Shown one piece after another: positions 28,101-34,100 of a stretch of DNA of 64,000 bases; positions within the stretch are counted from its first letter, which is position 1, and each line of letters begins with the position of its first letter. This DNA comes from Hydrolagus affinis (taxonomy: Eukaryota), in the NCBI GenBank assembly GCA_012026655.1, contig JAAILG010001611.1, positions 1-64,000 on the forward strand. Reading direction: 5' to 3'. Made by a program: the position numbers.

Positions 28101-31100
28101 AGGGGTAATAAAGAAACCAAGGTTATTTTTCTTGATCACTGTCCATCAATGTTTACTTTAAAGTGTGCATGTATGGACATGAGCTGATAATAGGTCAAGA
28201 CTGCCAATTAATATACCAATCATATGCTCACAAATAACCTCTAAACCCTGTATTATTACCTCAGTGCAATGCTCTATGACCACAATGTGCTTCAGGCAAC
28301 TTGTATGGTGAAACAAAGAGTATCAAGTCATGCCGGTGATCTACCAGTGAAGGAGCTGTTTAGAATTATGGTGATTAAGAGAAGGAAGACCTGGCTGGCA
28401 ATCCTCCAGATAAAATTGGTCATCTCATCTCCTGGCTGTTAGTGGGTTTTGGGTGTGAGCAAATAGGCTGCCACGTTTCCTACAGATATACAATTATATA
28501 TTTACAATAAATGTTATAAAGTGCTTTGAGGCATCTCGACACATTAAGATACTATATCAAATGTTATTAATGTTATTATTATCATTAAGGCGTTACATAA
28601 TAATAATCCTTGCTTTTGATATTGTATCCTATCACATCATCAAGACATCTCAAAGCCCAGCACAGAATATACAGTAAAGTGTGGTGACTGTATACTTTTA
28701 AGGGCAGCCAACCACTCACAGCAGCGTCCCACAAAGTCGTTATTATTATAATAATCATTGCATTTGATGTAGCGCCTTATCAAGTTGGCTTCACAGAAGT
28801 GTTTCCAAAATGAGGGCGGTATTTTAGGAATTTGCAAACAAAAAGCAGGACTGAAATAGCGACTTTCCCAATTCTCTTACGACTGTTTGGAGAATGCTGC
28901 AATCCTGGGGGAGGGGGCAGGTTTAATCCTGAGGGAAGGGAGAAGGTGTAATTCCTGCGGGGGTGGGGGGAGTATAATCTTGAGGGCAGGGAGCAGGTAC
29001 AATCCCGAGGAGGTGGGGGTGGCAGGTGAAATGTGCCGGGCTGACACTGAACTTGCACTCTTGTGAGCAATCGATGCTGGATTGTTTGGGGCTGGCGGTG
29101 GGCTGCTGTGTTCATCGCTGCTCGGGAGTCTCGTTCAAAAGGCCTTCAGCTCTCCCGCGCCACCGCTCCCCCCCACTAATCGACCGGTTTCGCCATGTCC
29201 AGCTCCCTGTGCCGGTTGTTGGAGCCTCTGGTCGCCCGCGGTGGCCGGCCGCAGCCTGTGAGCTTGTCGCGGGAGTGGCGGAGTGTCGGCGGGGGCGGGA
29301 GGCCTCCATGGTGCAGCTCTCCGCTGTCTCCCACCGGAGGCCTCGGGGTGGGAAGCCGCCGCTGCTTCACCCTCCGGCGCCCGGGTGTGTATGGCCGGGA
29401 GCGGGCTGGGAGTTGGTGGCTGGGGGTTGGAGTTGGAATGGGTTTAGGTTTAACCCTCACCCTTCGCCAACATTTCCCGTGCCTGCGATCTGAATGTCAG
29501 GAGGAGATTCCGGGAGAGGAACAACAACAAATACAAGTTCATGTACCACAACCAGCAGCTGCCAAGTTTTCATCAGCCATTAAAAACAGTCGAGAATTGC
29601 TCCAGCGAATAAAGGTGAGCGGTAGCATCTCCTTACCTGCATTGAAGAGAAACTTTTGTCTTTGATTTCCCAAGGCTATGTTAAATCCCAAAAATCTGCT
29701 TTCCTTTAGCATAAAATACCGAGGTTTCCCCACCACCACCCCCACCCCGCACATCCTCACAATACTGTAATCATAATAAAAATTCCTGCATTTGATATAG
29801 CACCCGATCACCTTTGAGATGTCTCGAAAAGCGCTTCACGGAATCCCCACAAAATATTTTATTATTATTCAAATATACAGTCGATTCACTTTACAGAATA
29901 TTCTGTGAAGCGCCTTGAGACGTCTAGAAGGGAAAAGCACCTATATCAAATGCAAGGATTATTATTATTATATTGCAAAGTGAATTGGCTGTGTATTTGT
30001 GGGTGAACTGTGGCGGCCAGCTTATTGTACTGTATTACAGTATTGTACTGAAGCAGTTAATTTTCACCACTGTCTGACCTTCCATTGGTGAAATACCGTG
30101 CTTCACAGTTCAGTATATCATATGAAGTGCTTTGAGCCATCTCAGCGATGTGACATGAAGCAAATATCAAATGCAAGCAATATTATCATGTACAGAAATT
30201 TCCGTGTAATGTATCTGGTATGGAGTGTGCGCCATTTCTCTCTGGAGGGGTGCCAACTTTTCGCTTAAAGGAAGCGCTCTGGGACGCTACTCTGCGTGAA
30301 GGGCGCTACATCAATTGCAAGTGGTTGTCATTAATCCGAAGATTTGACAAGATTCTGTCCACAATCCCACATGCTGATGGATGGATGGTTCCACCAGTAG
30401 AAGGTCGGGTGGTTTCGACAAGAGTGACTTACCTAATGCAGCGACTCATCTGTGTTGTTGTTAGCACCCTGAATATCTCCCTTCCCCAACTCCCCCAACC
30501 CTTTTCCAATTGAAGCAAACTATTTAAGATGCACGGGGCAGTCGGCTGGGCAGATGGAGCCCAGCGGTGACAGAGGAGGCCGCGGTGTCTGTGACGTCAA
30601 GCGCCTGACTCCCACCTTGTTGACATTCAAACGTCGGTTTGAATCCGCCTCGCGACCGCGTTCCATTAACGGCTCCGGGACCAACGGCTGCATTTGGCTC
30701 CGAAACTCCGCTTGTCTTTAGCCCTCCCCTACACACACACATACACATTACTCCTCACATACACACACACACACCGCTGAAGAGGGAGAAAAGCTAACCA
30801 CCGGTGGACCTCTATGACCTAGGTACTCCTACCCCTCCAACCTCTCTACCTCCAGTAGCCGGTGTATCAGCAGCGATGTTTTCCAGGACCTCGTCGCCGG
30901 GGTCGGGACCCAGCTGCCAGGACCGAAACAGCGCCGACTTGACGGGAGAAAACGTCGAGCGCGACTTCCACGAGGGTATCCAGGAGGGTAAGGAGCAGAT
31001 CAAGGACCTGAACGACCGCTTCGCCAAATACATCAACAACACGGTGATGAACCTGCAGCGCAAAAACAAGGAGCTGCTGTCCGAGCTGAAGCGGGTGGAG

Positions 31101-34100
31101 CGAGAGGAGTTCGGCGCCGTGGAGAAGGTCTTCCAGAAAGACAACCAGGACTTCCAATGCAGGATGGACGAGCTCCAGAACGAACTGGTGCTGTTGAAGC
31201 TGGACACGGACAAGATCAAAGCCCGACTGGACAAAGAGATCCAGCAAAAGAGGGAATACGAGAAGGACTTCCAGGACCTGAAGAAGAAATATGACGATGC
31301 TCTGGTTCTCCTGGAGAGGCTCCAGTGCCAGTGCAAGCTCCTGGAGGCTCAATTGGCGCAGCTGAAGATAGTCCGGGATCAAGAGCGCATTTACTGGCAG
31401 CAGAAGATCGACAACCTGCAGAACCTGGATCAGGTGGATACCAACACCCTGGACCTGGAGCAGGCGCTGAGGAACATGCGCAGCGAATACGAGCAGTTGG
31501 CCAAGAGGAACAAGGAAGAACTGGAGAGGTACAAGCAGAAGTTTGAGGAGAGTAGCAATCCATTGCAAAGGATCAAGAAAGAGACCGAGGCGTACCGCAT
31601 TGCCCTGATCGATTTGAGAATCCGGGATGAATTGCACAAGAGCCAACTGCAGGAGAAGGAGCGAGAGATCAATCGGATCAAGGAATACAATAAAACACTG
31701 GAGAAGAATGTTGAGGTTCATGCCACCGAATATCAGACCCTGCTCAACGTTAAGAATGGGCTTGAGCACGAGCTCTGTGGTTACAAGAGTCTTTTGAATC
31801 AAGTGGAAAAGAAGTCAAGGGACTATTCCTCTCCACCTTGCATAACCGCGGCCCCCAAAGCTACAGAAGATATCAATAAGATGTGGGCTTAGTGCATTTA
31901 GCGTACCCATTGTTAGAACACTTGGAACTTGCTTTAACATATTTTCTGACCATTGTAAAGCGTAACAAACAAAACTTTGAATTTGATTAATATATTAATA
32001 ACTGCTGAATCTGTTATCAGCTACAGGAAATTGTTTTTAGTCTTCAATGTTTCTTTCAATTATTTTGCTCATTAGATATATATTCATACAGGTGTTTTCC
32101 TAATTTGTAAAATGGAACATAGGCTAAAATCCGTTTTATTCAAAACAGCTCAACTGTAGTCATACTACAGATGAATAGAATTAAACGTTTTGGGTATCCT
32201 AAGCCATATACAGTACTATATGCTTTGGTCACATATACTGTTGGTGCAGTATTGGTAGTACGTAATTAGATAAAAGTAGCTTTTGGGACTAACTACATCA
32301 AATTGGTTGGTGTCAGTGACTCTTTCATTTTCCTTGAATATTTAGCTTGATCACAATTTTTTTTGATAATCAGAGGTCCATGATGTGCTTTGCAGTTGCG
32401 ACAAATGAGTAATAATACTATTTTAGGTTTCCATGTATCCTTTTCATTCATATTAGTGTTAACTTTAATAACTTAACTCTTATTAAAAGTACGTAACAAA
32501 TATTAACTATGCTTTCTGTTTTTTCTGATAAAATAAATCTGAAAAAATTTTTTGGCTTGTATATCTTTTATTGAAAAAAATTGCGATGTTCAAGATCTGT
32601 TATCACCTGGAGTCATTTAAGAAAAAATCTGCTCACATTCCCTAAGCCCATGGGAGTTGATGCCCCATAGAAGTTAGTTTAGGAATTCTCTCCAACCTTG
32701 AGGAATGTTGACTACAAATATATAGTCACTCCATTTCACAGTAAATCTTTTAAAGTCCTTTGAGATATCTTCCTGACATGACAAGGCACTATATCAAATG
32801 CAAGAATTATTATAAATTGAATTTTGCATTGCTGTCACTTAAAATAAACTTTACAGTTGAATGCATTAGATTTTTTTCTCTGCCCTCGTTCTGTTTCTTT
32901 TTGGGTCCATGGTGAAACTGGTTTATTGTCTGGCCGCACCTAATTTCAGGAACAAATATATCAAATTGGGTGTTTTCTCCTTCCGTACTTGAGATTGACA
33001 GTACAGTAGTTGAATAACTTACACAAGTGTACACTCCTCCAATGGAGTTAGCAACTCTAACCTCAGTTGGTTGCTCCCTTCCCATACATCCCCTTTTGTA
33101 ATTCCTCATTGGTTATCCAGTTTCCTTTAAAATGTTATTTTGGTCCCGAGCCTCAACCAAAATGACTACATAAGAAAATCATTTGAAGAATAATAATAAT
33201 AATATGAATAATTTACATGTACTCAAATCTAAATGAAGCTATTTATAAATAAATAAAAATAAATATTTTATTTAAAAAATAAAAATAATAAATTGGTCAT
33301 TTCAATCCATGACTGTGGGACACTGCTGTGCGCAATTGGCTGCTGTATTTCGCCCACAAATATACAGTCAATTCACTTTACTGTACCAGTATATTCTGTG
33401 AGCGCTTTGAGATGTCTAGAAGACATGAAAAGCGCTATATTAAATGCAAGGATTATTATTATTATTATTATGAGTCAATTTGTTTGGCCCCTAGTGGAAC
33501 TGAGAACTGCTTTCCATTTATAAGCAAAAACGTATCTTTGATAAGCTGTCAACTGATTCAATTGATATCACTCTTGCCTCTGAAACAGATGGTTGTGGGT
33601 TCAAGCCCCACTCTGCTGCATTGTCCCTTGGATGAGACTTTGAACCGAAGTCTGGGTTTTATTCGCCCACAAAATATACAGTCAATTCACTTTATGGTAT
33701 ATTTTGTGAAGCACTTTGATACGTCTAGAAAACATGAAAAGCACCAAATCAAATGCAAGGATTGCTATTATTGTTATTATCTACCTGTTCACATGGCTGT
33801 TAAAGATCCCAAGACCCTATTTGGAAAGAGAATTTACTCCTGGTGACCTGCCTCAAAGATCTTCCAGAGAAAAGTAACTCGCAGATGAATATAAATGATA
33901 TCGAAATGAAAAAAGGTAGTATGCCAAACTACTTTTCGTGAAATGGCTGTTTGTGAGACATTGTTATGTCCAAGCTGCCTGCCACACTTGCCTGCAACTA
34001 CATAACCACAGTGAATCCTGCAAATGGCTTTGAGAAATTCCGTCATGTATTTTGACAATTAAAGTAAAGGACTTAATTATTAAACTGCAGTATTAAACTG

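Follow-up and report, generated by a model that had tools for sequence, protein, structure and literature searches.

Does the first intron of LACTB in Hydrolagus affinis harbor a gene of its own, and if so, what kind of protein does that gene encode? The question is raised by a stretch of 64,000 nucleotides (nt) (positions 1 to 64,000 of the forward strand of contig JAAILG010001611.1, assembly GCA_012026655.1; termed the window), in which an original prediction had seen an old, domesticated retrogene of the intermediate filament (IF) family at positions 30876 to 31892. We found this interpretation to be partly supported. The presence of an IF-family coding sequence (CDS) is confirmed, and the rod of the encoded protein departs far from the canonical build, a point that the prediction had missed. 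Judging from its sequence, the IF-family gene is real and very probably functional. With somewhat less assurance, we regard it as probably a live gene with a single-exon CDS, nested in LACTB intron 1 and endowed with its own CpG-island promoter, which would encode a nearly "rod-only" protein.

The open reading frame (ORF) lies on the plus strand and runs, free of stops as had been claimed, from an ATG at 30876 to a TAG at 31890-31892, comprising 338 codons without interruption for a protein of about 40 kDa with the C-terminus KMWA. Its start codon is the first ATG downstream of an in-frame TAA (30795-30797) and has a purine (G) at position -3. From stop to stop, the frame extends over 30798-31892; the longest open frame in 2,000 mononucleotide shuffles of this interval averaged 122 codons and reached at most 284, versus 364 codons observed. 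A stop codon would arise from 158 of the 3,042 single substitutions that the ORF can undergo. The translation contains all the IF motifs quoted in the original prediction, rod-end motifs included: KEQIKDLN (residues 39 to 46), the rod-start motif LNDRFAKYI (residues 45 to 53), EKDFQDLKKKYDDA (residues 128 to 141), DLEQALRNMRSEYE (residues 193 to 206), and the rod-end motif EYQTLLNVKNGLEHELCGYKSLL (residues 285 to 307). When the protein was searched against the window with tblastn, the ORF was the sole match below an E value of 1, and hence no second copy was found there. The opposite strand carries a stop-free frame of 315 amino acids (aa), rich in Leu, Gln, and Val, at 30867-31814; frames of this kind commonly mirror a coiled-coil CDS, and it is no evidence of a gene.

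We compared the protein with the Pfam Filament profile (PF00038), a check proposed along with the prediction, and obtained a match well above the cutoff (E value of 4.6e-27; 95.9 bits for a cutoff of 40) in two stretches, the better of which aligned residues 38 to 279 with positions 2 to 247 of the 313-position profile. At E values up to 1, the Pfam scan gave no Filament_head, Keratin_2_head, tail, or lamin-tail family on the protein. Among PDB sequences (phmmer), the best match was full-length vimentin (E value of 6.4e-16), with query residues 25 to 312 aligned on 90 to 409 and an identity of ∼30% (85 of 288 query residues, counted by hand on the phmmer alignment). Altogether, of the 18 distinct PDB sequences matched at E values up to 10, 16 were IF proteins (vimentin, 8; keratin, 4; lamin, 4), and the remaining two were chance matches to CusC at an E value of 9.7. 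The neighbors in the ESM Atlas, among the matches listed, were all Filament clusters (keratin I at 0.96; alpha-internexin, phakinin, and unnamed IF clusters at 0.95), and residues 186 to 338 alone yielded the same picture. Searches with the whole protein and with this part pointed to the family only, with no class signal and no exact record.

We tried to assign the protein to an IF class from the PDB scores and rejected the attempt. Vimentin scored best in coil 1A (25.3 bits versus 14.7 for lamin), and keratin 5 (19.8), vimentin (19.6), and keratin 10 (19.6) tied at the end of coil 2; with PDB fragments of unequal length and tied scores, none of the classes can be singled out, in agreement with the earlier view that the protein fits none cleanly. 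The lamins (type V) carry a coil 1B longer by 42 residues, an Ig-fold tail, and a CaaX motif, whereas the IF protein has none of these, as had also been noted. That coil 1B has no lamin-type extension follows from the distance between the start motifs of coil 1A and coil 2, which falls 6 residues short of that in vimentin; the Pfam scan at E values up to 1 gave no lamin tail, and the C-terminal KMWA is not a CaaX motif.

We then looked into the architecture of the protein, which consists of a central, helical, heptad-periodic rod between a nonhelical head and tail. The head (residues 1 to 37, positions 30876-30986 on the plus strand, as for all parts of the protein) ends where the Pfam profile begins, at residue 38, and is Ser/Pro/Gly-rich at its start. 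It is acidic (net charge of -4, pI of 4.6, 3 Lys and Arg versus 7 Asp and Glu), and no di-Arg/aromatic motif was found in its 37 aa, so that it differs from the canonical basic head bearing such a motif. The rod (residues 38 to 312, ∼275 aa, 30987-31811) was delimited with Pfam, phmmer, and a structural model made with AF2. It includes the rod-start, or helix initiation, motif (31008-31034), coil 2 (residues 193 to 312, 31452-31811; placed by phmmer, Pfam, and heptad scoring), which contains Pro229, and the rod-end, or helix termination, motif (31728-31796). The tail (residues 313 to 338, 31812-31889) has 26 aa, with a low-confidence structure and no known tail domain. In the AF2 single-sequence model (mean pLDDT of 80.9), two helices (residues 24 to 187 and 191 to 316) are separated by a break at residues 188 to 190 (L12), and both ends are disordered (pLDDT below 50). 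The heptad score of the rod (Viterbi scoring) had a z value of 8.6 and was equaled in none of 1,000 residue shuffles; coil 1 and coil 2 were also heptad periodic when taken separately (z values of 5.7 and 6.4).

Both ends of the rod, LNDRFAKYI and EYQTLLNVK..LEHEL..YKSLL, align to those of vimentin, the last few positions being different, with an acidic ending NQVE after the final LL. The distances between such anchors revealed how the rod deviates. From LNDRFA to the motif at the start of coil 2, we counted 148 residues versus 154 in vimentin (6 fewer), and from there to EYQ, 92 versus 118 (26 fewer). Conversely, coil 1A is one residue longer than in vimentin, with the additional residue placed between Y52 and V57 by phmmer in alignments with 3 of 3 vimentin 1A fragments, and the heptad register analysis, with each of the three penalties, placed a skip at Y52/I53. 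In coil 2, the phmmer alignment contains a gap of 11 residues over vimentin positions 351 to 361. The position of the stutter of vimentin presumably falls inside the region that is omitted by both the phmmer and the Pfam alignments. In our own crude scoring, which had no positive control, unbroken heptads over residues 216 to 312 scored 46.2, versus 43.3 for the best model with a +4 stutter; for lack of that control, we call the stutter undetected and do not claim that it is absent. The lengths of coil 1A, coil 1B, and coil 2 are described as conserved in the chordate cytoplasmic IF proteins of types I to IV (PMC8466517), and the rod studied here, which relative to vimentin is longer by one residue in coil 1A and shorter by 6 ahead of coil 2 and by 26 inside it, does not have these canonical lengths. 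Foldseek gave no PDB match for the AF2 monomer at E values up to 0.001. Its top rows were antiparallel coiled coils of the SMC type, which reflects a monomer model folded back on itself, and the vimentin tetramer came at rank 6 (E value of 0.013, TM score of 0.25). A homodimer prediction scored 0.27 for a mark of 0.32; its controls were not run, and we used this value neither for nor against dimerization.

The nesting of the gene was evaluated from the exons around it. Exon 1 of LACTB (29195-29614, plus strand; ATG, 140 codons, phase 0, donor GTGAGC) matched no Pfam family, and we take it to be LACTB from the run-on of its peptide into later beta-lactamase exons. Exon 2 (34625-34691, plus strand) has 22 codons plus 1 nt and a phase compatible with exon 3, whose start is at 35909 on the same strand and which matches the Pfam Beta-lactamase family (E value of 4e-19); further exons lie near 36702-37028, 37442-37600, and 44332-44859, also on the plus strand. 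Intron 1 thus spans 29615-34624, and since exons 1 and 2 flank the ORF on its own strand, the ORF is inside this intron in the orientation of its host, as originally stated. Class-typical introns are reported in the rod-coding region of IF genes of types I to III and IV/VI (PMC2075511). None is present here, head, rod, and tail being encoded in the single frame 30876-31892. The description of the gene as intronless therefore holds for the CDS and has to be limited to it, given a strong acceptor-like site whose end, at 30855, is 21 nt upstream of the ATG. Among the matches listed in our literature search, no paper dealt with an intronless IF gene of a vertebrate or placed any IF gene in the TPM1-LACTB-RPS27L-RAB8B block.

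Base composition sets the unit apart from the intron around it, and here the claim of a GC- and CpG-rich island in AT-rich surroundings was borne out. Over 30500-31200, the GC content is 0.52 to 0.60 and the observed/expected (o/e) ratio of CpG is 0.77 to 1.08, and the GC content of the intron 3' of the stop is 0.29 to 0.37. Along the ORF, GC declines from 0.60 to 0.38, then to 0.29 past the stop. This part of the window has two CpG-rich peaks, one at 29000-29400 that covers the LACTB promoter and exon 1 and one at 30400-31200 (o/e ratio of 0.62 to 1.08) that spans the 5' end of the ORF and ∼400 bp upstream of it. Between them lies a CpG-poorer stretch bearing short interspersed nuclear elements (SINEs). 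The second peak is thus a candidate for a promoter belonging to the IF gene itself. At third codon positions, the GC content (GC3) of the ORF amounts to 0.76 overall, with 0.83 for the first half and 0.69 for the second, versus 0.41 at the first two positions. The corresponding GC3 values are 0.84 for a RAB8B-like exon 1, 0.61 for LACTB exon 1, and 0.32 to 0.49 for the later LACTB exons; since the ORF falls within the range of the nearby CpG-island exons, its composition is exon-like and not foreign. Downstream, an ATTAAA followed by a GT-rich stretch (32180-32185, plus strand, 288 nt past the stop) may serve as polyadenylation signal.

The original prediction called the gene a retrogene, and this proved to have a single basis, the uninterrupted CDS, which, like that of a processed retrogene, is one open frame without introns. 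The term is unproven: we found no poly(A) remnant, the first run of at least 6 A residues occurring only 650 nt past the stop, and no target-site duplication, since among 16 families of direct repeats between 30300 and 32700, none combines a copy 5' of the ATG with another 3' of the candidate polyadenylation signal. An origin by retroposition is possible from the sequence. Unproven as well are the old age, the domestication, and the lineage-specific IF class suggested in the prediction. As a related alternative, the ORF might be a neutral retrocopy, or a processed pseudogene, derived from an IF gene elsewhere in the genome, with no function and a frame that is open only through youth. The lack of introns in the CDS and the GC-rich unit within an AT-rich intron are compatible with such a copy, and the noncanonical build of the protein might come from an unknown divergent parent or from early decay. 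However, we consider this explanation unlikely: the lack of an A-run of at least 6 within 650 nt of the stop and of flanking direct repeats speaks against it, as do a CpG o/e ratio of ∼1 that reaches ∼400 bp upstream of the ATG, a fully intact heptad periodicity, and a GC3 like that of local CpG-island exons. The intact heptads, the exon-like GC3, and the separate CpG peak also make it plausible, albeit indirectly, that the frame has been kept intact by selection, as had been argued.

The sequence upstream of the ATG raises another possibility, namely a multiexon transcript that closes with the ORF as its last exon and would have a noncoding 5' exon, a phase-1 coding exon that lengthens the head, or a start at the LACTB promoter and an end at this locus. 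The acceptor-like site at 30831-30855 (plus strand), with 15 pyrimidines among 18 positions and then AG, equals the acceptors of LACTB itself and is preceded by CTAAC at 30793-30797; it may mark a 5' untranslated region (5'UTR) intron or, through a phase-1 upstream coding exon, a longer head. The head is unusually short, and an Arg-rich open frame that contains FKRRFESASRPRS is found at 30473-30718. We nevertheless judge a last exon improbable. LACTB exon 1 joined to 30856 runs immediately into a TAG, the Arg-rich frame lacks both a good donor and the reading frame of the ORF, and the ATG of the ORF has a purine at -3 and opens a sequence, MFSRTSS, that we take to resemble the start of type III heads. 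We also considered and rejected a LACTB-IF fusion protein through an acceptor at either 30822 or 30855, since LACTB exon 1 ends in phase 0 and both junctions read into the TAG at 30856-30858. The Arg-rich frame, on the plus strand in the CpG-rich DNA 5' of the ORF, was rejected as a head exon for want of a usable donor and of a matching frame; its FKRRFESASRPRS resembles the di-Arg/aromatic motif seen in IF heads, probably by chance. A two-codon upstream ORF (ATG ACC TAG, 30813-30821, plus strand) would belong to the 5'UTR only in a transcript that started further 5' and did not use the 30855 acceptor.

The mammalian TPM1-LACTB-RPS27L-RAB8B block is not known to hold an IF gene. We consider it very unlikely that the ORF is the one-to-one ortholog of an IF gene that already has a name, such as a syncoilin-like or beaded-filament-like gene or a fast-evolving one of type III/IV, sited here in this lineage. 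Vimentin as best sequence match, a phakinin cluster among the listed ESM Atlas neighbors, and a rod, a head, and a coil 2 truncation close to the 279, 38, and 29 aa reported for filensin (PMC2119801) favor such orthology, but an identity to vimentin of ∼30% is at the level between classes, the rod-end consensus is kept where that of filensin and phakinin is said to diverge substantially (PMC3087291), a long tail is missing, and named IF genes are described with rod introns (PMC2075511).

We therefore retain, as the probable explanation, a live single-exon-CDS gene with its own promoter, and several points weigh against it. The case for a live gene is built on the sequence of the window, and within it the promoter and the polyadenylation site were deduced from composition and a single hexamer only. 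With an upstream exon joined on at 30855, the ATG at 30876 could be an internal one. In the protein, the coil 2 gap is placed differently by the phmmer alignment and by the end of the Pfam stretch (profile position 247 of 313), and the scoring of the stutter was of our own, crude making and had no positive control. Finally, the lost stutter, a lost Trp position in coil 2, the extra residue of coil 1A, and the tiny acidic head could reflect decay under relaxed constraint.

If the gene is live, its product would form parallel coiled-coil dimers through the rod, and the two conserved rod-end segments are those that IF proteins use for head-to-tail overlap, a use they may have here as well. Canonical 10-nm filaments made from this protein alone are unlikely, because its 37-aa head is acidic, its rod is ∼32 residues short, no stutter is detectable, and coil 1A has an extra residue. 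Published work on other IF proteins offers parallels. Vimentin without the stutter is described as proceeding through early assembly and being blocked in elongation (PMC3087291), and NF-L deprived of most of its head as assembly incompetent, with smaller truncations disrupting networks (PMC2116331). Filensin alone is reported to form no regular filaments and to need a partner (PMC2119801), which is phakinin (PMC2119801; PMC2290875). By analogy, we propose that the IF protein most likely acts as an accessory or heteropolymer subunit that would join or limit the filaments of other IF proteins, engaging their subunits through its rod ends.

The rest of the window provides the genomic context of the locus. 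The names LACTB, TPM1, RPS27L, and RAB8B are those that we presume from the exon peptides and from the mammalian block, the neighboring exons having been searched singly and not as joined spliced models. Three tropomyosin exons lie upstream on the plus strand, at 9308-9439, 18207-18275, and 19064-19144, with Pfam Tropomyosin E values of 0.0069, 1.3e-05, and 0.0098, all scoring below the cutoff, as is expected because these exon pieces are so short. Downstream are an RPS27-type exon on the minus strand (49684-49794, Pfam E value of 0.0046) and a Rab8-like first exon on the plus strand (ATG at 54025, GC3 of 0.84). The latter is inside a CpG island at 53000-55000 (o/e ratio of 0.83 to 0.86), and the RPS27-type gene and the Rab8-like exon may have a common bidirectional promoter.

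Repeats and other minor elements were also seen in the window. A scan with Rfam at its gathering thresholds gave three tRNA-like matches only, none near the ORF (63242-63314, minus strand, 44.7 bits; 11619-11690, plus strand, 42.4 bits; 6437-6501, minus strand, 32.2 bits), and these are probably the heads of tRNA-derived SINEs. A recurring SINE-like unit, with the translation ..YTVNSLY..KCKDYYYY.., occurs for example at 8452-8724 (minus strand) and at 29796-29915, 33313-33846, and 51119-51478 (plus strand). Microsatellite tracts of the CA/TACA type at 9450-10000, directly 3' of the tropomyosin exon 9308-9439, and at 3750-4290 give rise to His/Thr-rich pseudo-ORFs. Remnants of the tails of long interspersed nuclear elements (63625-63981, 1721-2191, and 58526-58909, all on the minus strand; e.g., ..RGDPTEIFKIMRG.. 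and ..SRLDYSNALLAGL..) presumably resemble elements common in cartilaginous-fish genomes, and so may the SINE remnants. Two runs of 100 N (23063-23162 and 51797-51896), corresponding to assembly gaps or masking, are both outside LACTB intron 1.

What would such a gene mean? IF proteins are defined by a rod with nearly fixed subdomain lengths and a stutter, and the exceptions, filensin and phakinin, are informative on the rules of assembly. If the present reading is true, a natural protein that has both rod-end motifs and is devoid of 26 coil 2 residues, of the stutter, and of most of the head is a ready-made test, one that could separate the parts needed for dimerization, for longitudinal overlap, and for elongation. 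An IF gene free of introns also bears on an old proposal that neurofilament genes had an intronless intermediate. In its furthest form, the idea would be that the ORF represents a conserved, unclassified IF lineage of jawed vertebrates or cartilaginous fishes, single-exon, rod-only, stutterless, with the shortest known rod, a built-in partner or limiter of elongation, and a living example of the intronless IF gene postulated at the origin of neurofilaments; we deem this quite improbable. Should the gene turn out to be a dead copy or a paralogue of the ordinary, annotated kind, the matter reduces to a routine point of annotation.

Comparison with known systems helps to situate the gene. According to the proposal in question, which was later challenged, type IV genes passed through an intronless, retrotransposed intermediate (PMC2075511). 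The ORF shares with this hypothetical neurofilament ancestor an IF coding sequence without introns, yet nothing ties it to type IV, and no hallmarks of retroposition were found. The engineered mutants of NF-L and vimentin show what a short head or a stutterless rod entails, being reported as assembly incompetent, network disrupting, or elongation defective (PMC2116331; PMC3087291); those are laboratory constructs, whereas the IF ORF is a natural gene, known here from its sequence.

With vimentin (type III), the IF protein shares the rod-start, coil 2 start, and rod-end motifs, an alignable pre-coil segment, and the absence of a lamin-type insert. It differs by an identity of only ∼30%, by an acidic head of 37 aa instead of a long and basic one, by a tail of 26 aa, by the altered coil lengths (a coil 1A longer by one residue, a stretch to the start of coil 2 shorter by 6, and a coil 2 shorter by 26), and by a stutter that we did not detect; in contrast to type III IF genes, its CDS has no introns. 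Phakinin (BFSP2) has a full-length rod and a multiexon gene. It resembles the IF protein in that it is described without a real tail domain (PMC2290875), and its cluster was among the listed ESM Atlas neighbors (0.95); unlike the IF protein, it is reported to diverge from the consensus motifs (PMC3087291). Filensin (BFSP1) likewise diverges from the rod-end consensus as described in PMC3087291, whereas the IF protein keeps both motifs, and filensin has a tail of 438 aa where the IF protein is nearly tailless. Its rod of 279 aa, given as the shortest among IF proteins, results from a 29-aa truncation of coil 2 and follows a head of 38 aa (PMC2119801). With a rod of ∼275 aa, a coil 2 shorter by 26 residues, and a head of 37 aa, the IF protein comes close to these values, and filensin, compared here through its published description, is its nearest architectural parallel.

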